Source: an uncultured Candidatus Saccharibacteria bacterium (lineage in GTDB: Bacteria; Patescibacteriota; Saccharimonadia; Saccharimonadales; Saccharimonadaceae). From it: a stretch of 24,000 bases of DNA. The stretch lies in the NCBI GenBank assembly GCA_938036785.1, contig CALHWE010000011.1:1-24000 (forward strand). The letters are read 5' to 3'. The notes beneath the pieces were generated by a model, which worked only from the letters and a program-made list of their open reading frames with translations, was not told the DNA's origin and did no database searches. Shown one piece after another: positions 8,178 to 19,172 of this stretch. The position numbers and the translations under genes are program-made. The stretch's first letter is position 1. Every line of letters begins with the position of its first letter.

Positions 8178-8909
8178 CTACCGCCCTACCCTGCTTTTTT
8201 GCAATCGGTAAAACCGCTCTTGATTACCATGCGCGCCCTTCACGCTGCTATCGGCCTTGTCGATAATCACACAGTAGGTGCGCACCCACTGCTCGAAGTC
8301 GCGCAGGATGGCACGGCGCACGCTGTCATTTTTGACGATGCCACCGCGTGTAAGCTGCGCGCGCTGCGCCTCAAACTGCGGCTTGACCATCGCGATGATA
8401 CTGGTGCGCGAACTGCTGATACGCACTAGGTGCGGTAGAATTTTGCGCAGACTAATGAACGATACATCAATGACAATAATGTCTGGTGTAGTGGCTGGCA
8501 CAAAATCGCGAATGTCGGTTTTTTCATGCAGCTCAATGCGCGGGTCGCCACGTAGGCTAGGGTGGAGCTGCTCCGTCCCCACGTCCACCGCATACACCAT
8601 GCGCGCACCATGCTGCAATGCATAGTCAGTAAAGCCGCCAGTGCTGCTACCAACATCAAGCACGATAGTATTATCAAATGAAATATTGAGCCGCTGCGCG
8701 ACGCTGGCTAATTTAAGCCCCGCCCGCGACACATAGCGCTCGTGCGCCACCAGTTTTATCTGCGTCGACTCATCTACAAACATCCCCGGCTTGTGCGCCA
8801 CCGCACCATCCACCAATACCTTGCCAAGGCGAATCCAATTCTCAGCCGCTGAGCGTGTTGCTGCTTGGCCACGCGCCACCATTGCTTTGTCTAGTCGTTG
8901 TTTTTGCAT
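8178..8909 (-). CDS. tlyA: TlyA-family rRNA 2'-O-methyltransferase (S4 domain plus FtsJ-like methyltransferase)
   Basis: From the ATG at 8909: MQKQRLDKAMVARGQAATRSAAENWIRLGKVLVDG is the S4 RNA-binding domain. VLDVGSSTGGFTDYALQHGARMVYAVDVG is the SAM-binding motif. The track ORF extends to 8984, but TATAAT sits 6 nt before the ATG at 8909. Confidence 0.88.
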   Translation of the reverse strand: MQKQRLDKAMVARGQAATRSAAENWIRLGKVLVDGAVAHKPGMFVDESTQIKLVAHERYVSRAGLKLASVAQRLNISFDNTIVLDVGSSTGGFTDYALQHGARMVYAVDVGTEQLHPSLRGDPRIELHEKTDIRDFVPATTPDIIVIDVSFISLRKILPHLVRISSSRTSIIAMVKPQFEAQRAQLTRGGIVKNDSVRRAILRDFEQWVRTYCVIIDKADSSVKGAHGNQERFYRLQKSRVGR

Positions 8910-8915
8910 GTTCTT

Positions 8916-8921
8916 ATTATA
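8916..8921 (-). promoter_or_regulatory. -10 box TATAAT, 6 nt upstream of the tlyA ATG (leaderless)
   Basis: Minus strand reads TATAAT-AAGAAC-ATG(8909). Confidence 0.5.
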
Positions 8922-8984
8922 CTGCACGAGTGGGTAGATATTTAGTTGGTGTAAAGCTAATAGGCCTGCTGCATCTTTACACAA

Positions 8985-10573
8985 TGCATGAGACTATAGA
9001 GCGTAATAATGATGAGGTTGGATGATACTACTGCGCGCGGATATGCTTCTTACTTCCGTCGTTTTTCAAATTTTGAGGATGAAGAAATCCGCTTTGTTCT
9101 TTGCGCGCTATTGCAGCTTTTATATTAATAACCCACTCAAACTATCGCGCACTGCAGCATACTATTCTTCATTCGCACACGTTGCTGGAAGCTAGCAGGA
9201 TATTCAAAACACAAGACAGCTCAGCCAAGCATATAGTATATATAACAAAAATTGAGTGGGCATCGTGATAGCGAAATATCTTGCACGTATGGCTGTGCCG
9301 CATCACCAACAAGCTGCATATTCACCCTCCCGCAAAAGCACTACACATAGCAAAACACGATGCCACTGCGGCAGATGCTTCGCATAGCGAGTCAGCCTGT
9401 CTGAATAAAAAATTGATTTTGACAGCATCACATTTTTGCAAGCCAAGCGTGAGTATTTGTGTATGCCACATGGTATATTTCGCATCCTCGCTGCACATAG
9501 ATGTGCAAGAATGTATCGCACCATATTTTACTTTTATGCGTGTTTTGCAAAATTTGTATGGGCCATCTGTAAGCAGTTCTAGCCGCGATAATAAACAATT
9601 CATTTTTGCACAAATCTACAAACAATGATTATTTTTATCATCAACCGCTCATTCGCGCAGCCTATACTTCGCAGCAGCATATCGCCTCGCTATAATTTGC
9701 TCAGTATGCAAAAAACCAAAAATGAAACACCCTCCAGCCAGCCACAACAAACTTGCACGAAAAAGCAAAAAATCAAAAATACTCAAACCCAAAAAATAGA
9801 CGCGCCGCACAATGATCACATTTTTTATCACGCAGCAACAGCTCCACGCATCATGTTGCTAGCAGTATTTTTTTACGTGAGTGTGCTCAAGCCAAACGCG
9901 TAGCTTCGCAGCAACACAACAAAAAATTGTGTTCATTATTTTTAAAATACTTATGTTTACTTTGGTACGTTTTGTATTATGCCCTATTGCCATAAGCGTT
10001 ATTATATTGCTAAAGATAAATGCGCGTTTGTAACGAAAATTTGTTCATTTATGCTTATGGTTACTGTGTTTATCCTGGGTGTAAGCATACGTGTGCGTGC
10101 TCCATGCCGCACGAAACAATCGTTGAGTTTGGCACATCGTTGTTGTGCTCACTATATCCTTCTAGCTGCCCTGATGTTGTTTGTACATCACTATGCCTAT
10201 TCCTTCCTGTTGTGCTCGTATCATCGTTTTGCTCAATTGCTGTACTTCCTACGACGCTCATATTCCGAACGTTCGCCAGGTATTCTCTGTTTCTGTTCTG
10301 TCTTTTTTACAATGCCTTGTATATTTCGGCATCATCCTCGTTGCAGAGAGCTGTGTTGCATTCTTTACAATAATATCTCGATCCTATCGAGCTTGACGAC
10401 GCGCCTCATGTATTGGTTATTACAACATTATGTATGCCCTTTTTCTTGCGCGTACCATTCAGCAAAAACACAGCGCGCTCATAAGCTTGTGCTCAAAATT
10501 GGCAAAAATCGTCTCTACTCTACGTTGTTTTTATCACATCTCTAGGATGCTCCAGCCTGGGCATCACGCGGCA
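8985..10573. other. AT-rich, ORF-free tract A, depleted in G on the + strand (about 1.6 kb)
   Basis: No credible ORF. The track ORFs here (for example 9979-10545) translate to Cys/His/Phe/Leu-rich junk. Three hand-counted lines (9301, 9721, 10261; 180 nt) give A63 C53 G22 T42. Confidence 0.8.
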
Positions 10574-10574
10574 C

Positions 10575-10602
10575 AAAAAATACACCGCTTTTCGCGGTGT
10601 AT
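10575..10602 (-). terminator. Rho-independent terminator of efp
   Basis: Minus strand reads ATACACCGC-gaaaa-GCGGTGTAT followed by TTTTTTG. The 9-bp stem is perfect (10580-10588 / 10594-10602). It lies about 70 nt after the efp stop. Confidence 0.85.
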
Positions 10603-10675
10603 ATATGTTATCCCTACTTTCTCTCACTTTTGCATGTCAACGCGATGAGAGCGGCTCTCATGAGCTCTCAGGGCA

Positions 10676-11236
10676 CTATTTCTTGCGCTCGCGATACTCT
10701 CCGCTTGCAGTATCGACAGAAATAACGTCGCCCGTCTTAATAAAGGCTGGCACCTTGACGACAAGGCCCGTCTCCAGCGTCGCATCTTTGAGCACACTGC
10801 TGGTTGTATCACCTTTTACAACATCTTCGGTGTAGGTGACTTGAAGGTAGAGGTTTTTTGGCAGCTCGACATTGATCACTCTGCCATCAAAGAACTGCAG
10901 GCTCAGTGTGTCCCCCTCCTTCAGATAGTCCTTAGCGCTGTCGACGAGGTTCGCAGCAAGCTCAAACTGCTCAAAGCTAGTTGGATCCATAAAATAGAAC
11001 GTATCACCATCATTATAGAGGTACTGCACACTCTGTGTTGACACCTCGGCGGGCTCAATCTTGTCTTGCCCCTTGAAGGTCTTAGGCAGCACACTCCCAT
11101 CGATCAAGTTCTTCAGCCGCACATTCACAATTGAGCCACCCCGGCCCATTACCTTCTGATTATAGTCCACAACCCGATACGGCTTGCCATCGAGCTGCAC
11201 AATCACGCCTTTTTTGAGGTCAGTTGGTTGGTACAT
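10676..11236 (-). CDS. efp: Translation elongation factor P (Arg32-type loop)
   Basis: MYQPTDLKKGVIVQLDGKPYRVVDYNQKVMGRGGSIVNVRLKNLIDGS... aligns with EF-P along its length. AGGAGA lies 6 nt upstream of the ATG at 11236. The track ORF starts one codon earlier at a GTG. Confidence 0.93.
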   Translation of the reverse strand: MYQPTDLKKGVIVQLDGKPYRVVDYNQKVMGRGGSIVNVRLKNLIDGSVLPKTFKGQDKIEPAEVSTQSVQYLYNDGDTFYFMDPTSFEQFELAANLVDSAKDYLKEGDTLSLQFFDGRVINVELPKNLYLQVTYTEDVVKGDTTSSVLKDATLETGLVVKVPAFIKTGDVISVDTASGEYRERKK

Positions 11237-12041: not shown

Positions 12042-12386
12042 TTACTCTTCTGTCTGGCGGCTGGCTTCGCGTGCTTTAGCCTCGGCCATCAGCTTGCGGC
12101 CCTTCTCGTCCACCTTGACGAGCAGGTAGCGGATCACATCATCAGAAATATTCAGCGCATTACTGATCTTTAGCGGTGCATCGGCAGGCAGCGCCACCTC
12201 AAAGTAGACATACACCGCAAAGTCTTCCTTCTTAATACTATACTGCAGCTTTTTCTTGCCCCAGTTGTCTTCGCTGGTAATAGAGCCACCAGCGCCGAGC
12301 ACCAGCTCACGCACCTTAGCAAGCGGTGCTTCAAGGTTTGATTCTAGATCTGGCCGAATCAAAACCGTTAGTTCATATTGTTTCAT
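12042..12386 (-). CDS. rpsF: 30S ribosomal protein S6
   Basis: From the ATG at 12386: MKQYELTVLIRPDLE...FAVYVYFEV matches the S6 family. A strong AAGGAGG lies 7 nt upstream. The track ORF starts 8 codons earlier with no support. Confidence 0.93.
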   Translation of the reverse strand: MKQYELTVLIRPDLESNLEAPLAKVRELVLGAGGSITSEDNWGKKKLQYSIKKEDFAVYVYFEVALPADAPLKISNALNISDDVIRYLLVKVDEKGRKLMAEAKAREASRQTEE

Positions 12387-12461
12387 ATGTAAACCTCCTT
12401 TGGGATCCATATGGATGTTTATCCGGACGATAAACTTAGGTTAATAACGCATTATATTATA
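12387..12461 (-). promoter_or_regulatory. rpsF promoter (overlapping TATAAT boxes at 12451-12461) and a leader of about 60 nt containing a hairpin
   Basis: Minus strand reads CGCGTATAATATAAT...GTTTATC-gtccg-GATAAAC (perfect 7-bp stem, 12417-12435)...AAGGAGGTTTACAT-ATG. The loop contains CCG. Confidence 0.55.
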
Positions 12462-12469
12462 CGCGAGAC

Positions 12470-15313
12470 AGCATGCAAAGTCTAGCGAGGTACAGGGGTG
12501 TGGAGGTGTTGTGCTTTTTAGTTTTTCTATTTTTTGAATGGTCACATACTCTGTGTAATTATAAGTTGTTAGTTACCTCATTCGCCGCATGATTGCACCC
12601 CGTCTTGCAAGCACTTATCCATCCTGCCATAAGCCAAGAAGTGGCATGACGCGATCATATGCTCTATCCGCATTTCACAAAAAAGATAATTACATTATGG
12701 CGCTACAATTCGCTTGCTTCGCCCCATCACTATCCTTAATATATTATGCCCATATATTATATATAAGCCCAGCAAAGCACCCTTTAAACGCTATCGCATC
12801 TATAAAATAATACTTGTTATATGTCAAAATATGAAAAATGAACCACCCGTACTTGTCGTGTATATATTACTTTGTCTTTCGCTCTTTTAGCTCTTTCAAT
12901 GCTGCGATGTATCTATAAAAATTATCGAGCCAGTTTTCGCTTGTGCTTATTTCGCTATTGCTTCTGCCTAAAGCGAAGTATTGTTTTGCTGTCTCCTTGC
13001 GCATTTTTGTCAGAGCCACCTATAGCACTCCATGGGGCCATTATGTCTATCTCATTTTTGCACACTACTTACATAGAGCCAGCTGCCCCGCCTCCATACA
13101 TCGTACATGCAGGTCGATATTTTGCCATTTGTTTCCATACCATAAAGTACTATATAATGCAAAACGTGAAAATTTTGAAACCTTCATTCGTACCATCAAC
13201 GATGCATCATTATTTTTTATCCAAGCCATACATCGCACCCTATTAGATCGTGTATATGTAATAACCATAACCACTATATACTGCTTGTGTTTGTCGCACA
13301 TTCGCCTACATTTAACACACAATTAGCCACCTACGCTCAAAAATATGAAAATAGCACCATGCTAACCCACTCGCTGGATCATATACATCACACTCCATTC
13401 ATTTTTTGACTTCGCACTCACACTCTGAGGTTGTTTTATACACCTAATGCTTTGCTATACTAATTATGCCTATCTCACCATCAACTATCCTTTGCTTGCA
13501 TTATGCAACCGATCATGAAAATTTGCTATGCTATCGTATTGGCATGACGCAGACGCAAATCCAGCTATCACCACATCCTCACAAATCACCCTCTTAGCCA
13601 CAAAGTTACTCGCGCCTACCATACATTTTGGCTCACCAATGCCTACTATTTTTGACCCTCGTCGCACCCATCTGCTTGGTTATGCAAATTTTACTACCAA
13701 GCCTATCGTTGAATAATTTTCTACTGTTTTCATACATCCTCTCCGCACCAATTGTACATCGTCATACCTCGCGGTACACAAAAATCTCACCCCTCACACC
13801 ATCATCGCATCGCACTATTTCAAAAATCATCATTTTTTATTAGCGGTCAATCAGCTGCTGCCACACATGCTTCGCATATCATACACATCTCACCAAAATT
13901 ATCACATTCTTTCGGCACGCACAAACCATCATTGCTTCTTGGCATTATATTTTTGCACTACTTTGCCAGGCTGAGTTTCATTATTCTCCAAATTTTTATT
14001 ATGAACATCATTATGTTTCGTTCATAAACTTTAGCGAGGCGGCCCATTACTTAATTCGCTTCTTGCATCACATTCAACCTTCTTGTGTTCGCACGCGCCG
14101 CACAGATTTTAGCCAGAACATGGCAGCCATTTACTCAAGCGAACTCACTCCCTACTTTATCTCACAACCTCACATTCATTTTTGCATATTTCCCTAATCA
14201 AAAATGTGAAATTTTGCACTGCTACTACACGCACTTCATTTTTATTACACATGTTGTACGTCGCTCCTCTATCTTTCTATCTCGCTGCGTCAATTTTTGC
14301 ATACTCATTCACAAATTTGCACATAGGTGTGCACACTGCCATCATCCTCATTTTATATTTACTACCAAACAACCCATTCTTATATCATTCATCACTCACA
14401 TAGTAGCAAAAAATATTTTGCACGCACATTATGTTGCAAAGTTACGAACGTTTTTGCTAGACGTCGCTAATTTTTTAGCAATAGCAAATAGTGCATCAGC
14501 GTTTTTTATTACAGCGTCGCAATGCTATATTATTTTTGTCATGTATGTGCTATCTGCTTGCCACTCCGGTTTTCGAAAATAATCGTTTTTTCACAGCAAC
14601 GCACTTCTGTCATTTTTCTACGTGCAAAATTATAACTACATATATCGTGTACCAATCAAAATAGACAAAAAATAATATTTTGCTGCAGAATAATTATTAA
14701 TAATGTATTTCCCACTCATATTTCTGCAAACCACTTTGCAAAAATATCTTTACTACTGCAAAAAGCTGCTCGTCGCTTTGCATTATACTTTGCCGTTTTC
14801 TCATCTTTGACTTTTTGTATTTCAATTCATACCGCACTCGTCGCTTATTCGTTTCGCGCCCGCTCAATTTCTCATCAATATAGCGGCAATAAACTGTATG
14901 AACGAATTATTATAATATTCATATTCTCTCACTGCCCCCTCGCTTGTGTTATGTGTAGCATCATATACAAAAAAGATATATTCGATGAAGCAATCGACTC
15001 ACTTTGCATACAAAATATTCATTACGATACACTATATATAGTACATTATCATATCTATGCTTTTTAAATTTACCATTCACCGCTCTGAATATATTCATAT
15101 TATATTCAGACATTTCCTTGCTCGTTTTCAGGCAATTTATAACATACAAGTGCGTCAATATAGCACACAAATATCTCCTCGCAGTACGAGAAATGCATTA
15201 TTTTCGTCACAACGCACAACATTACACCAACCAATACACGCGATCCTTAAAAATTCAATGGCATAGCACGTGCCCTTGTTTATTCTTTGCAATCACCATA
15301 GATTTTTTGCACA
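12470..15313. other. AT-rich, ORF-free tract B, depleted in G on the + strand (about 2.8 kb)
   Basis: No credible ORF in six frames. I hand-counted 126 G in 1,080 nt (about 12%). Five fully counted lines give A76 C91 G31 T102. There is a 64-nt run with no G at 14339-14402. TTTTGCA-type motifs recur throughout. Confidence 0.85.
13453..13461 (+). promoter_or_regulatory. Orphan extended -10 promoter TGCTATACT inside tract B
   Basis: The 13-mer TGCTATACTAATT (13453-13465) is identical to the pheA promoter (20693-20705), and its first 10 nt match the ychF promoter (6151-6160). No credible gene lies downstream. Confidence 0.4.
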
Positions 15314-15314
15314 G

Positions 15315-15338
15315 AAAAACCAGTGCTCATCACACTGG
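15315..15338 (-). terminator. Rho-independent terminator of the 247-aa gene
   Basis: Minus strand reads CCAGTG-tgatgag-CACTGG followed by TTTTTCT. It lies 25 nt after the stop at 15363. Confidence 0.7.
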
Positions 15339-15362
15339 CTTTCTCTCGTCTATAACTAGCCT

Positions 15363-16106
15363 TTATGCAGCGAGTGAGAAGTCTCCTTGAACCAAACCAA
15401 GCTCATCACTATACTCAAGCCGTTGCGACTCTGTAGTCGGAACCAGCACAATACCACTTGCAGTGCTGAGCTCGCCATCAATCACATCACCTTGGTCTGT
15501 GATCATCTGCGGGCCTTCGCCTGGCTCACCCTGAATAATGCCATACACAACAGGGGCACTATCAATCATCTCTTGATCTGGGCGCTTTCCAACATAGAAT
15601 CCAATCAATGAGCCGATTACCCCTTCTTCCGCTCCACCATCTTCGCCTAAAGAAATCGCCGCTTCTTGGTGGGATAGCGACGACTCAATTGCGGAATACA
15701 GCGATGATACATCGCCTTGAGTGTCCTTAGGGCTCTTAAAGTCGTCAACTATTAGCACGACATATGGGACATCATTGACCTCAATAATATCACCAATTGC
15801 CAAGCCAAGCTTATCGCGCAGCTCGGATAATTTATTATGAATGGTATCAATGTGCTGATCTGTCATCTCAGCCATCGACAGTGCAAATAGCGGCCCAAGC
15901 TCGCGCTGCAGCCAGCCTCGAACCTCTTGAGCAGATGGCAGCTCAAGAGCATTTGGCTTGCCATATCGATCATTAAACTTTTTGTCTGTCAGCATATTTC
16001 CATCATTTGCTGTGTCGTATTTTGAATATTTTGTCTCGCCCACTGGCGGTTTGTCACTTCTTGCGAATGGTTCTTCGCTTGTGTTATTGTTGGTATACTC
16101 TCTCAT
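15363..16106 (-). CDS. Acidic hypothetical protein (247 aa), no recognisable domain
   Basis: Clean ORF with host-like GC (about 53% in one counted line), its own terminator, and the sequence GGAGTATAAACAACT-ATG upstream. The protein is rich in Asp/Glu/Gly with no TM helix or signal peptide. I recognise no family. Confidence 0.65.
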   Translation of the reverse strand: MREYTNNNTSEEPFARSDKPPVGETKYSKYDTANDGNMLTDKKFNDRYGKPNALELPSAQEVRGWLQRELGPLFALSMAEMTDQHIDTIHNKLSELRDKLGLAIGDIIEVNDVPYVVLIVDDFKSPKDTQGDVSSLYSAIESSLSHQEAAISLGEDGGAEEGVIGSLIGFYVGKRPDQEMIDSAPVVYGIIQGEPGEGPQMITDQGDVIDGELSTASGIVLVPTTESQRLEYSDELGLVQGDFSLAA

Positions 16107-16724
16107 AGTTGTTTATACTCCGCACTATGATTTTGGTTAACGGCATTGGCTCCTTTCTGCCGATTCCTCCCTGCTGCGTGCTTTGTGGCGCGTGGCAGCG
16201 TGGTAGTAAGTAATCGTATCATTTGCATTATAGCATAAAACCAGCGCCTGCAAAGCTATTTTTGGCCTTATTTTCGTATTATTTTCCCCATATGTACCCC
16301 TGTCGTACCAGTGTTAGCTATCTGGACGATAATTATATATTTTTCGCAAGCATTTTGGCTCTAATTACGCACTTCTCCGCCTTCACCAGCAAGATTTTAT
16401 TGCTCTGCCTGCCTCTATCGCTACACGTGGGCCGAGGTAAAATATAAACCACAAATAGATATAGATAAGCCCAGCTCTTGCATACGGAGGCTAAACAACT
16501 AGTGCTGAATAAAATAGCACACAGAGGCACACGCGAGGCCTCCTGAGGTTTTTAGGTATAGATTCTCCCCACTCACGCACTTCCTAAATACTGAGAGCTA
16601 CCAAAGCCAGATGATTGATACACCGTTATTATTCGCTCCTCCAACTGCTCGCTATGTGGCCATGGCAAAACAAAATCGCCCAAGGCATCTACCTCGGACG
16701 ATCTTGTATGTTGCGCTGCAGAAC
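16107..16724. other. ORF-free tract C between rpsG and the 247-aa gene (about 0.6 kb)
   Basis: Only short junk ORFs. Line 16261-16320 counts A10 C15 G9 T26, the same C>G direction as tracts A and B but weaker. Confidence 0.7.
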
Positions 16725-17952: not shown

Positions 17953-18450
17953 TTAGAGTCGTTTATATGATCGATTGTACCGTCTCTGCATATCTTTCTT
18001 GCAATAGCTACGATTTAGTGTATACGCAGTCACCATAATTCCCGCTACTGGCCTTGTTTTACTACGCATCCGTCGCAATATTACAACAAAATCTATATCT
18101 GCAAGCCATAAATACAATGTATCCCCTTTTGGGTGCTTGTCCCAAAAAGCCCTTACTTCTGGTTCTTTATAGTTCTCTAGTATTGCACGCACCCAAGGAA
18201 GCCGCGTCGCTCTATCATAGTCAATCTTTCGAAGCTTCTTACCGCATGTAATAATGTGAGTAAAACCCTTTGGGTAAAAACCTCCCCAGGATGGATCGGG
18301 GTGTGAATTTGTATAAACAGGTAATCCATCAACAATCGGTGGTGTTGTCTTAAGAAAATCATGCTCATACACAGCAAACAATTTTTTTATATCAGCCTCA
18401 TATGAATTACTAGAGAGCTCTAACTCTAGCGGTAGCCATTCTGGTATCAT
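17953..18450 (-). CDS. Hypothetical basic protein (165 aa), translationally coupled to the DUF3800 gene
   Basis: The ATG at 18450-18448 shares one nucleotide with the upstream stop (TGATG). The track ORF uses an upstream TTG at 18468. GC is low. The C-terminus is very basic (KKDMQRRYNRSYKRL). I recognise no family. Confidence 0.6.
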   Translation of the reverse strand: MIPEWLPLELELSSNSYEADIKKLFAVYEHDFLKTTPPIVDGLPVYTNSHPDPSWGGFYPKGFTHIITCGKKLRKIDYDRATRLPWVRAILENYKEPEVRAFWDKHPKGDTLYLWLADIDFVVILRRMRSKTRPVAGIMVTAYTLNRSYCKKDMQRRYNRSYKRL

Positions 18451-19172
18451 CACTCGCGCGGTTCCCAAAAGAATAAATTGAACTTTTCAGTGCTAGGCGG
18501 TGTACCACTTGTCAGCTCTTGCTGAGTAATTTTTTTTAGAAATGCTACTAACTCCTTTTTTGCTTCTGATTTCTGTTGGTTACTTGGTTTATTTGCATAC
18601 ATTACTGCACCAGTCACAAGGTCGGCCAATTGTAAACCTATCACCTCATGTGAACACAATGGTTGTGCTGTAAAATCTTTATCTTGGAACTTCGCTGTAT
18701 TTCTCAAGTATCTTGCTAACTCATGTGACCTATGCCCAGACCAGGTATCTTTATAGTCTAAAAATAACCGCAAACTGTGCGTAGATGTACTCTTTTCAGC
18801 AATATTACGCACCAAGTAGTATTGCATTTTATAATAAAAATCATCGCTTGTCTCGTTGTGAGCTTCATAATTAACCTTATTTTTATCAATCACTACTGCT
18901 CTGTAGCTGACTTGATCAGTTTGGTGCAACAACAATAACAAATCTTTATAGTATTCAATTTTTGATGGGCTCACCTTAGTCCACTTAATCTCACGGTGTG
19001 AAGATATCTTATGTTTCTTTTTAATACACTTAACTTCTCTAAGGAGCATTGGCAGCTGTTTAGTATTTAGCCAAACTGCACCAAGAAGCATCTTGCCAGA
19101 GCCATGCCCAATGTGACAAGATTCATCAATATAGACATATGTAGAATATTCTTGATTGTGTATATTTCTCAT
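18450..19172 (-). CDS. DUF3800-family protein (240 aa)
   Basis: N-terminal STYVYIDESCHIG matches the family's hhh-D-E-S-G-like motif. C-terminal VIGLQLADLVTGAV matches its LQ-x-A-D motif. GC is low, about 35-40% in two counted lines. Confidence 0.7.
   Translation of the reverse strand: MRNIHNQEYSTYVYIDESCHIGHGSGKMLLGAVWLNTKQLPMLLREVKCIKKKHKISSHREIKWTKVSPSKIEYYKDLLLLLHQTDQVSYRAVVIDKNKVNYEAHNETSDDFYYKMQYYLVRNIAEKSTSTHSLRLFLDYKDTWSGHRSHELARYLRNTAKFQDKDFTAQPLCSHEVIGLQLADLVTGAVMYANKPSNQQKSEAKKELVAFLKKITQQELTSGTPPSTEKFNLFFWEPRE

Follow-up and report, generated by a model that had tools for sequence, protein, structure and literature searches.

In a 24,000-nt stretch of DNA from an uncultured Candidatus Saccharibacteria bacterium (contig CALHWE010000011.1, positions 1 to 24,000; this whole stretch is called the window below), a gene-free interval of almost 3 kb, tract B, separates an orphan gene from rpsF and is markedly depleted of G on the + strand, so that C is scarce on the - strand, the gene strand of this locus. 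The tract is interpreted, with rather more confidence than doubt, as an unconstrained spacer or a fully decayed relic which displays the AT-biased, strand-asymmetric and context-dependent mutation pressure of its lineage. Its composition would then have drifted to the output of the mutation process because nothing selects on its sequence. The tract diverges at the neutral rate, lacks coding and RNA-structure signals and accumulates asymmetric, context-dependent substitutions, and the same signature occurs elsewhere in the window. This interpretation and the alternatives weighed below, in which the tract is kept for its length or composition, descends from a burst of deamination or carries a few small functional sites, are not mutually exclusive.

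Base composition of the tract and of the window

Exact counting over positions 12470-15313 gave A 0.282, C 0.248, G 0.130 and T 0.340 on the + strand, corresponding to a GC content of 0.38 and a GC skew of -0.31, with local 200-nt windows reaching -0.48. The maximal-skew core was located at 13000-14400, where the + strand holds 11.8 % G and 28.1 % C and the skew is -0.41. The other 1400-nt windows averaged -0.074 (standard deviation (SD) 0.047, minimum -0.18), which places the core 7 SD away from them, and the tract was the sole place in the 24 kb where an absolute skew of at least 0.28 extended over 600 nt. The G-poor, skewed, gene-free tract described in the initial annotation was confirmed by these counts; the range counted there by hand (12961-14280 and 14341-14400) contains 164 G in 1380 nt (11.9 %). 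The flanks, an orphan gene on one side and the rpsF promoter on the other, were also as described, except that the gene-free limits extend to 12411-15362 (2952 nt), from the stop of the orphan gene to the start of rpsF, as established by the open reading frame (ORF) map, the Pfam-identified flanking genes and the end-to-end alignment in relatives.

The excess of GpC and the deficit of GpA previously estimated by hand agreed with the exact counts, in which 181 of the 371 G on the + strand of the tract were found in GpC (observed/expected 1.97) and GpA stood at 0.54. On the C-poor strand the ratios were 0.54-0.60 for TpC, 0.49-0.64 for CpC, 0.77-0.82 for ApC, 1.97-2.02 for GpC and 0.88-0.94 for TpT, and the commonest base was A, not T. 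The composition of the tract is therefore real and highly non-random.

The same tendencies, in a milder form, were found in the remainder of the window. All nine intergenic pieces, about 6.5 kb in total, contain more G than C on the - strand (skew +0.07 to +0.30), and within these 24 kb nearly all 500-nt windows showed a negative + strand skew, including most of those lying in + strand genes. The average skew of the window was 0.07-0.10, and in the rest of the window GpC reached 1.40 and GpA 0.81. An identical skew in all intergenic DNA of the genome had been named beforehand as grounds for abandoning the idea of a special element, and the sign of the skew is indeed shared by every intergenic piece of the window, which largely speaks against such an element.

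A second non-coding tract of this kind, tract A, lies downstream of efp at 8985-10675, between efp and a tlyA-like methyltransferase gene. Its skew on the - strand (+0.13) is weaker than that of tract B, but the dinucleotide signature is present at full strength (GpC 1.95, GpA 0.62). The + strand ORFs of tract A (9281-9628, 9625-9903 and 9979-10545) showed no codon periodicity in 26 relatives and were annotated inconsistently by different gene callers. The homologous segments, spanning 8900-10750 of the window, measure 1836-1862 nt in relatives, so tract A is as stable in length as tract B.

Distribution of the tract and gene order in relatives

A genome scan with one genome per species, ordered by the identity of ribosomal protein S6, the product of rpsF, revealed 38 Saccharibacteria (Nanosynbacter-like) metagenome-assembled genomes (MAGs) with at least 97 % S6 identity, followed by a single genome, L049, at 77 % and the remainder at 75 % or less. 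The identical S6 protein was found on many human-oral metagenome contigs, and the window also matched Saccharibacteria MAGs. Close relatives in which one contig covers the whole interval (46 of 48 loci) all carried the tract at full length, always at the same site and without any presence/absence variation. In an alignment of 42 relatives and the window (43 genomes, to which the conservation figures given below refer) it was 79-89 % identical from end to end and 2888-2960 nt long, mostly 2937-2956 nt, and the gene strand of all copies contained A 0.33-0.35, C 0.125-0.136, G 0.24-0.25 and T 0.28-0.29. Since relatives carry a full-length tract of uniform composition, it is neither an assembly artefact nor a strain-specific insert.

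In distant Saccharibacteria (L058 and L069 were compared) rpsF directly follows RNase J, FtsK and pheA and there is no tract. In the present clade rpsL-rpsG, the orphan gene and the tract are placed between pheA and rpsF, and L049 has the identical gene order. The rpsL-rpsG pair, behind which fusA-tuf normally follows, is thus found together with the orphan gene just upstream of rpsF in this clade and in L049. The tract DNA probably arrived or was stranded when rpsL-rpsG and the orphan gene came to lie beside rpsF in the ancestor of the lineage.

At the site of the tract the sister lineage L049 contains a gene-free gap of 1.27 kb with 30-36 % GC and a C-poor gene strand (skew +0.3 to +0.4). 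Only its last 52 nt, those at the rpsF promoter, could be aligned with the tract, and an nhmmer profile built from the 43 genomes retrieved no distant homologues of the tract, L049 included; neutral sites between L049 and the main clade are saturated. At the position of tract A the gap in L049 is 0.77 kb. Comparison with sister genomes, recommended in the initial annotation, accordingly showed that the tract is universal in its clade, while an intact gene set at the site was not found: the scan yielded no intermediate lineages with intact genes, the S6 identity falling at once from 97 to 77 %, and a single metagenome scan with the orphan-protein alignment returned main-clade loci only. No account of such tracts was found in the literature searched.

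Rate of evolution

The nucleotide diversity (pi) of the tract was 0.162, in comparison to 0.123-0.197 at the four-fold degenerate sites of five flanking genes and 0.159 in the next intergenic region. Conservation followed the identity of the base and not its position: about half of the A/T sites were invariant and only 20-26 % of the C/G sites, with variability highest at C sites (pi 0.233, 20 % invariant) and lowest at A/T sites. C in GpC was conserved no better than other C, and the apparent conserved blocks were mostly runs of A/T. When base-specific mutability was taken into account, no more than a few 20-nt blocks came up to the 95 % null. A lack of transcription and of all conservation was another outcome that the initial annotation had listed as fatal to a functional element, and essentially no conservation was detected beyond the neutral expectation.

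Diversity within the tract is arranged in dimorphic haplotype blocks of 20-50 nt that are shuffled among genomes (14990-15190 and 14640-14945), for example TATCATATCTATGCTTTTTA versus GAGCGCATCTATACCCGCTT. Such mosaics indicate that divergent alleles often recombine in this group, which is naturally competent; in the model strain TM7x natural transformation has been used for allelic exchange (PMC11623550).

Substitution process

Substitutions were counted in two ways, as minor alleles against the consensus, where fast sites are saturated, and by parsimony on a neighbour-joining tree. In both counts transitions prevailed, the bias ran from G/C towards A/T and the two strands were asymmetric. 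On the gene strand the per-site ratio of C>T to G>A was 1.14-1.38 in the tract and 1.15-1.47 in its core, similarly to 1.18-1.22 in tract A and 1.22-1.26 in the spacer between rpsG and the orphan gene. The tree counts per site were 3.85 for C>T and 2.87 for G>A. The ratio of T>C to A>G was about 0.9-1.0, that is, an A>G asymmetry was absent.

The equilibrium calculated from the tree matrix was A 0.36, C 0.13, G 0.22 and T 0.29, the observed values being A 0.34, C 0.13, G 0.25 and T 0.28. Since the tree-based stationary level of C equals the observed one, the C-poverty of the tract is predicted by the substitutions taking place in it. Across all estimates the equilibrium was 0.13-0.15 for C (observed 0.13) and 0.20-0.22 for G (observed 0.25). 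The net flux is directed towards a loss of G, GpC and TpG and a gain of C, CpC and ApC. The ratios of changes on terminal to internal branches in the tree counts were 1.88 for C>T and 1.89 for G>A, and 1.65 for T>C and 1.66 for A>G. Changes that raise the skew and changes that lower it therefore have equal ratios and give no sign of selection maintaining the skew; only the usual slight disadvantage of GC-to-AT changes is left. The neighbouring base also mattered: T>C occurred at 0.59 after G and at 0.25-0.39 otherwise, and A>G at 0.67 before C and at 0.39-0.49 otherwise. The excess of GpC runs parallel to these two raised rates.

The composition of the tract could arise from three components of this process. 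The surplus of G/C-to-A/T transitions over the reverse ones would pull the GC content from about 58-61 %, as at four-fold sites, down to about 35-38 %. On the - strand, C>T at 1.1-1.5 times the per-site rate of G>A would let C settle near 13 % and keep G above 20 %. The raised T>C after G and A>G before C would continually regenerate GpC, so that the surviving G and C tend to adjoin. All the flanking operons have the - strand as their sense strand, and the skew of genes in both orientations suggests that it is the leading strand as well; the asymmetry may be caused by deamination of cytosine on whichever strand is single-stranded more often in replication or transcription.

It is rather doubtful that the tract is a relic of one or more genes or of a foreign insert which suffered a burst of strand-specific cytosine deamination sparing GpC, for instance by a deaminase of single-stranded DNA that disfavours a 5' G, and has been relaxing since. 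In agreement with a burst, the clade consensus, which is nearer to the ancestor, has a more extreme composition than every living copy, and its 347 C are distributed as 176 GpC, 90 ApC, 60 TpC and only 21 CpC; C is depleted after T, C and A and spared after G, the direction of the net flux is that of a relaxation (GpC and TpG lost, CpC and ApC gained), and G still stands above its equilibrium. Furthermore, the gene order of distant relatives, with rpsF directly after pheA, indicates an insertion or relocation of the block in this lineage. Nevertheless, TpT, the expected product of TpC deamination, is not enriched on the C-poor strand, the most abundant base there is A instead of T, and neither residual periodicity nor an ancestral open frame nor any protein, phage or plasmid similarity was detected (see below). 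The same signature is moreover visible, although weaker, in native genes and at full strength in tract A, and its presence throughout the native genes favours a chronic endogenous bias over one event. Among the three proposals of the initial annotation, the strand-specific, context-dependent, hypermutated relic of former genes thus comes nearest to the findings: the strand asymmetry and the context dependence have been retained, while no trace of former genes was found and the bias resembles ordinary, ongoing mutation rather than hypermutation.

Tests for protein coding

Across relatives, the substitutions in the tract showed no three-base periodicity anywhere and the diversity was flat across codon positions, in contrast to the pattern in rpsF (0.098/0.000/0.007). 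The base composition was equally flat across codon positions (chi2 = 2.25, p = 0.9), compared with chi2 values of 28-160 for the real genes of the window. The + strand contains ORFs of 124-165 codons, some of which remain open in relatives. Their length is explained by the scarcity of G: each + strand frame has 28-32 stops instead of the 51 expected from base composition, whereas the - strand frames have 53-86. These ORFs gave no Pfam or PHROG match, in accordance with their dismissal as junk in the initial annotation, and the gene callers annotated the tract ORFs inconsistently between genomes.

No Pfam match was obtained with the - strand translated in frame either. The - strand frame in phase with the orphan gene had 53 stops, compared with 80 and 86 in the other two (P about 0.003 in simulations), and was tried as a ghost ORF. 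It was rejected, given the 26 stops common to at least 90 % of genomes in this frame and the flat codon-position composition; in each frame 26-41 stop positions were common to at least 90 % of genomes, and when every genome was read in its own coordinates the three frames were equal, averaging 75-77 stops. Translation under alternative genetic codes, also suggested beforehand, did not help, since TAA, TAG and TGA all occur in every - strand frame and no single reassignment opens one. The frequent indels of 1-2 nt likewise exclude a maintained frame. Overall, a protein-coding tract, whether through the + strand ORFs, through the - strand under an altered code or through many tiny ORFs, is already contradicted by the tests performed, in spite of the long + strand ORFs and the low stop count of the frame in phase with the orphan gene.

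Two further candidates were set aside. A relic of fusA/tuf downstream of rpsL-rpsG was searched for by tblastn, the queries being an E. coli EF-Tu sequence and all ORFs of 120 codons or more from the window, from three close loci (L001-L003) and from distant loci; chance or self matches were the only result. A - strand ORF at 13065-13322 (85 codons) matched PF18767, the family of AID deaminases, only marginally, with E = 0.023 and 15.2 bits where the cutoff is 27.3. This ORF has no coding signal and, given the number of queries, the match is at chance level, so it lends nothing to a deaminase burst.

Tests for RNA, repeats and mobile elements

No Rfam family matched the tract at the gathering score, and at E<=5 only two chance matches to snoRNAs appeared (E 0.7-2.5). 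ARAGORN detected no tRNA in the tract. When 200-nt windows of both strands were folded and compared with dinucleotide shuffles, z ranged from -2.1 to +1.2, with a mean of about -0.3 for the gene strand. Sliding consensus folds of 12 genomes flagged the terminator of the orphan gene and a few short AT-rich hairpins, which proved to be short conserved inverted repeats with compensated pairs in only 2 of 26 and 1 of 16 cases. Promoter-like sites in the tract numbered 17 (13.7 +/- 3.6 in shuffles), and the promoter scan combined with conservation in the 43 genomes did not find a conserved promoter for a tract transcript. The novel long non-coding RNA or RNA sponge put forward in the initial annotation is therefore not borne out: there is no Rfam match, fold scores lie near zero, covariation is almost absent and the divergence is that of four-fold sites. 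The related proposal of an insulator or R-loop-prone zone likewise finds no support in sequence constraint.

Searches for direct and inverted repeats and with TRF gave only short repeats at chance level. BLAST of the tract against itself yielded seven off-diagonal matches, in comparison to 3.2 in shuffles. Hints in the k-mer offsets of an ancient tandem unit, at about 425 nt and 115-130 nt, fitted no single period and the candidate was dropped. A phage or plasmid origin was not indicated by blastn against 50,697 phage and 72,556 plasmid records, which gave no match, or by PHROG, where matches were also lacking.

Observations at odds with a neutral tract

Several observations weigh against the interpretation of the tract as freely mutating DNA. 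The observed skew of 0.30-0.35 (0.43 in the core) exceeds the predicted equilibrium of 0.15-0.26 (0.20-0.33 in the core); part of it would therefore be a legacy from the clade ancestor which present mutation does not explain. The agreement between tree-based equilibria and present composition has to be read with the reservation that recombination inflates parsimony counts and homoplasy and pulls these equilibria towards the present composition. On the C-poor strand, the four-fold sites of core genes have no shortage of C (C 0.30, G 0.28), and with strands pooled their GC content is about 0.58-0.61, while unconstrained DNA is heading for about 0.35; selection or biased gene conversion must therefore hold these sites. 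L049 keeps a gap at the same place that cannot be aligned and is equally C-poor, which is surprising for junk in a lineage of compact genomes; the genome of TM7x, the model strain of the lineage, is described as having short intergenic regions and 94 % coding DNA (bioRxiv 10.1101/2022.03.25.485537). In the tract, indels amounted to 0.044 per substitution with a mean size of 1.9 nt, against 0.122 and 7.5 nt in the neighbouring spacer, the one comparator used. Finally, a few short palindromes are invariant, and TTTGCA half-sites occur at about three times the expected number and are weakly conserved.

Some of these observations would be accommodated by a functional element that depends on composition or length and in which selection acts only on size and base composition, an alternative regarded as unlikely. 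It could take the form of a region that buffers or insulates the rpsF operon from the rpsL-rpsG-orphan unit, of a C-poor unstructured transcript, or of a C-rich, G-poor antisense RNA for Rho loading; RNA from the + strand would have a rut-like composition (C 25 %, G 13 %) and weak predicted folding, at -18 to -44 kcal/mol per 200 nt. The length range is narrow in spite of about 16 % divergence across the 43 genomes, indels in the neighbouring spacer are three times as frequent per substitution and four times as long, the gap in L049 remains skewed and gene-free without any sequence similarity, long non-coding tracts lie on both sides of the rpsF operon, and the skew of the core is above mutational equilibrium. 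Skew-lowering changes, however, are not depleted on older branches relative to skew-raising ones, and the net flux erodes the skew. The stability of length does not require selection either, since the measured indel rate (93 gapped column runs in the alignment, mostly of 1-2 nt) predicts a change of only tens of nt. Tract A is equally stable in length with a far weaker skew, and a tract transcript has no conserved promoter. If the spacers nevertheless proved to be maintained for length or composition, this would constitute a new, sequence-independent constraint in a minimal bacterial genome.

A more specific version, which seems quite improbable, is that the rpsF-ssb-rpsR-efp operon is deliberately bracketed by spacers, 2.95 kb upstream and 1.7 kb downstream, whose sequence drifts while their length and C-poor sense composition are kept. 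Such spacers might buffer topology or transcription, or form a zone related to R-loops or to Rho, and they would explain the low indel load, the skewed gap of L049 and the skew beyond equilibrium.

The palindromes and half-sites could also belong to mostly neutral DNA with a few small functional sites, be it TTTGCA/TGCAAA operators or half-sites, palindromes, or one or two small RNAs in the better conserved islands; we give this possibility little credence. TTTGCA/TGCAAA was found at 18 sites, where about 6 were expected by a hand calculation from dinucleotide frequencies, and the pi of its G/C positions was 0.141 versus 0.218 elsewhere (p = 0.036). With the mutability of each base allowed for, the best 20-nt block (12822-12844) reached z = 3.89, the null values being 3.66 (95 %) and 3.93 (99 %). 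A small invariant palindrome, CTTGCATTATGCAAC at 13495-13509, with 15 near-invariant positions, lies in a 20-nt window (13494-13514) with z = 3.55, just below the 95 % null. A conserved inverted repeat, CTGAATAT..(loop)..ATATTCAG, at 15085-15109 has five of its eight stem pairs invariant among 35 distinct sequences, in which no compensatory change in the stem was seen, and another is located at 14726-14741. In addition, two islands of low skew and lower diversity (12800-13000 and 14400-14600) contain 50-54 % invariant sites, in comparison to about 40 % elsewhere. These effects nevertheless become marginal once the low mutability of A/T runs is allowed for. The invariant fraction of G/C in the motif (26 %) equals the background (23 %), and with this marginal signal selection on the TTTGCA sites was rejected; promoter-like sites were no commoner than in shuffles and covariation was lacking.

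Relation to known systems

The tract may be compared with several known systems. In bacterial chromosomes GC skew arises from an excess of C>T on the leading or non-transcribed strand, and bacterial mutation is biased from GC to AT. The window resembles this pattern in having more G than C on the gene-rich strand, with one sign for both gene orientations and all intergenic DNA, in the higher per-site rate of C>T than of G>A in the tract, and in unconstrained DNA being far richer in AT than four-fold sites. It differs in that the skew of the tract, 0.3-0.45 over 2.8 kb, is above both the window average and the estimated equilibrium, and in that A, not T, is enriched together with G.

Long-lived tracts of pseudogenes and junk are known from reduced, host-restricted bacteria, as in the non-coding fractions of Mycobacterium leprae and Rickettsia. 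The tract is likewise gene-free, syntenic, evolving at the neutral rate and retained across many relatives; unlike them, it has no intact homologue or residual coding signal that could be found, shows few indels and belongs to a lineage of compact genomes. In animal mitochondrial DNA the asymmetry between heavy and light strands is usually attributed to deamination on the strand that stays single-stranded longer. One strand of the tract, with about 13 % G, recalls this situation, but the asymmetry is local instead of replicon-wide and is not accompanied by an A>G asymmetry. The large bacterial non-coding RNAs OLE, GOLLD, ROOL and HEARO also occupy kilobase-scale regions without ORFs, from which the tract differs in having no Rfam match, folding signal, covariation or conservation beyond neutral.

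An unusual composition in a gene-free tract thus does not have to signal a new RNA or element, since the mutation bias that selection hides elsewhere is on display in unconstrained DNA. From tract B and tract A, as natural reporters, the mutation spectrum of a Saccharibacteria lineage of the uncultivated type may be read: an AT bias (equilibrium near 35 % GC, genome about 50 % GC), C>T in excess of G>A on the leading/sense strand, and regeneration of GpC. The four-fold sites of core genes (GC4, their GC content, about 0.6) would by this measure be far from mutational equilibrium, which implies strong selection or biased gene conversion in a small genome. A non-coding share of more than one quarter of the 24-kb window is odd for a group known for compact genomes.

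Flanking genes and regulatory features

On the - strand, the tract is followed by rpsF (12042-12410; PF01250, E = 4.7e-22), the first gene of the rpsF-ssb-rpsR-efp cluster. Its control region (12392-12497, - strand) is nearly invariant, with pi of about 0.00-0.03, and is excluded from the neutral tract. The promoter scan identified here a promoter-like TTTGCA-17-TATAAT at 12479-12451, accompanied by a hairpin in the 5' untranslated region (UTR) with the arms GTTTATC and GATAAAC and by an upstream C-rich block. The hairpin, GTTTATC-GTCCG-GATAAAC, lies at 12411-12450 and is invariant; it is retained in L049 (5965-6000) with one altered loop base (GTTCG), and no Rfam family matched it at E<=5. 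It may be an autoregulatory leader.

The upstream edge of the tract is formed by a terminator-like hairpin of the orphan gene at 15315-15345 (- strand). The hairpin scan placed the stem at 15320-15338, where CCAGTG-TGATGAG-CACTGG is followed by a tail, TTTTTCT, read from the sequence; the block has a pi of 0.02 and a consensus fold z of -5.3. The orphan gene itself (15363-16106, - strand) encodes 247 amino acids and its diversity at the three codon positions is 0.19/0.17/0.26. The protein is 33 % identical over its full length to its counterpart in L049, with conserved motifs that include ELRDK, KSPKD and ITDxGxxxDGEL. Database searches returned homologues that were all at least 85 % identical, and no Pfam, PHROG or distant database homologue was found. 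The orphan gene is thus a real, fast-evolving protein family confined to this lineage and its sister. The suggestion that it is the truncated 5' end of a larger gene was ruled out because the L049 homologue ends at the same C-terminus.

Beyond rpsF come ssb and efp, and beyond the orphan gene rpsG and rpsL; all of these are encoded on the - strand. By length, the intergenic region between rpsG and the orphan gene (16107-16724) falls into two classes (about 590-618 nt and 647-667 nt), and it carries an indel load far above that of the tract. A promoter-like TTTGCA-16-TATAAT, extended by TG, is located there at 16254-16227. Between pheA and rpsL a low-GC accessory island (17953-19172, GC4 0.26-0.28) comprises a DUF3800 gene and an ORF of 171 codons weakly matching a family of phage replication proteins (phrog_16230, E = 2e-5). 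The island, considered also in L003, L007 and L010, occurs in some relatives and is missing from others, along with a gene for an MFS transporter.

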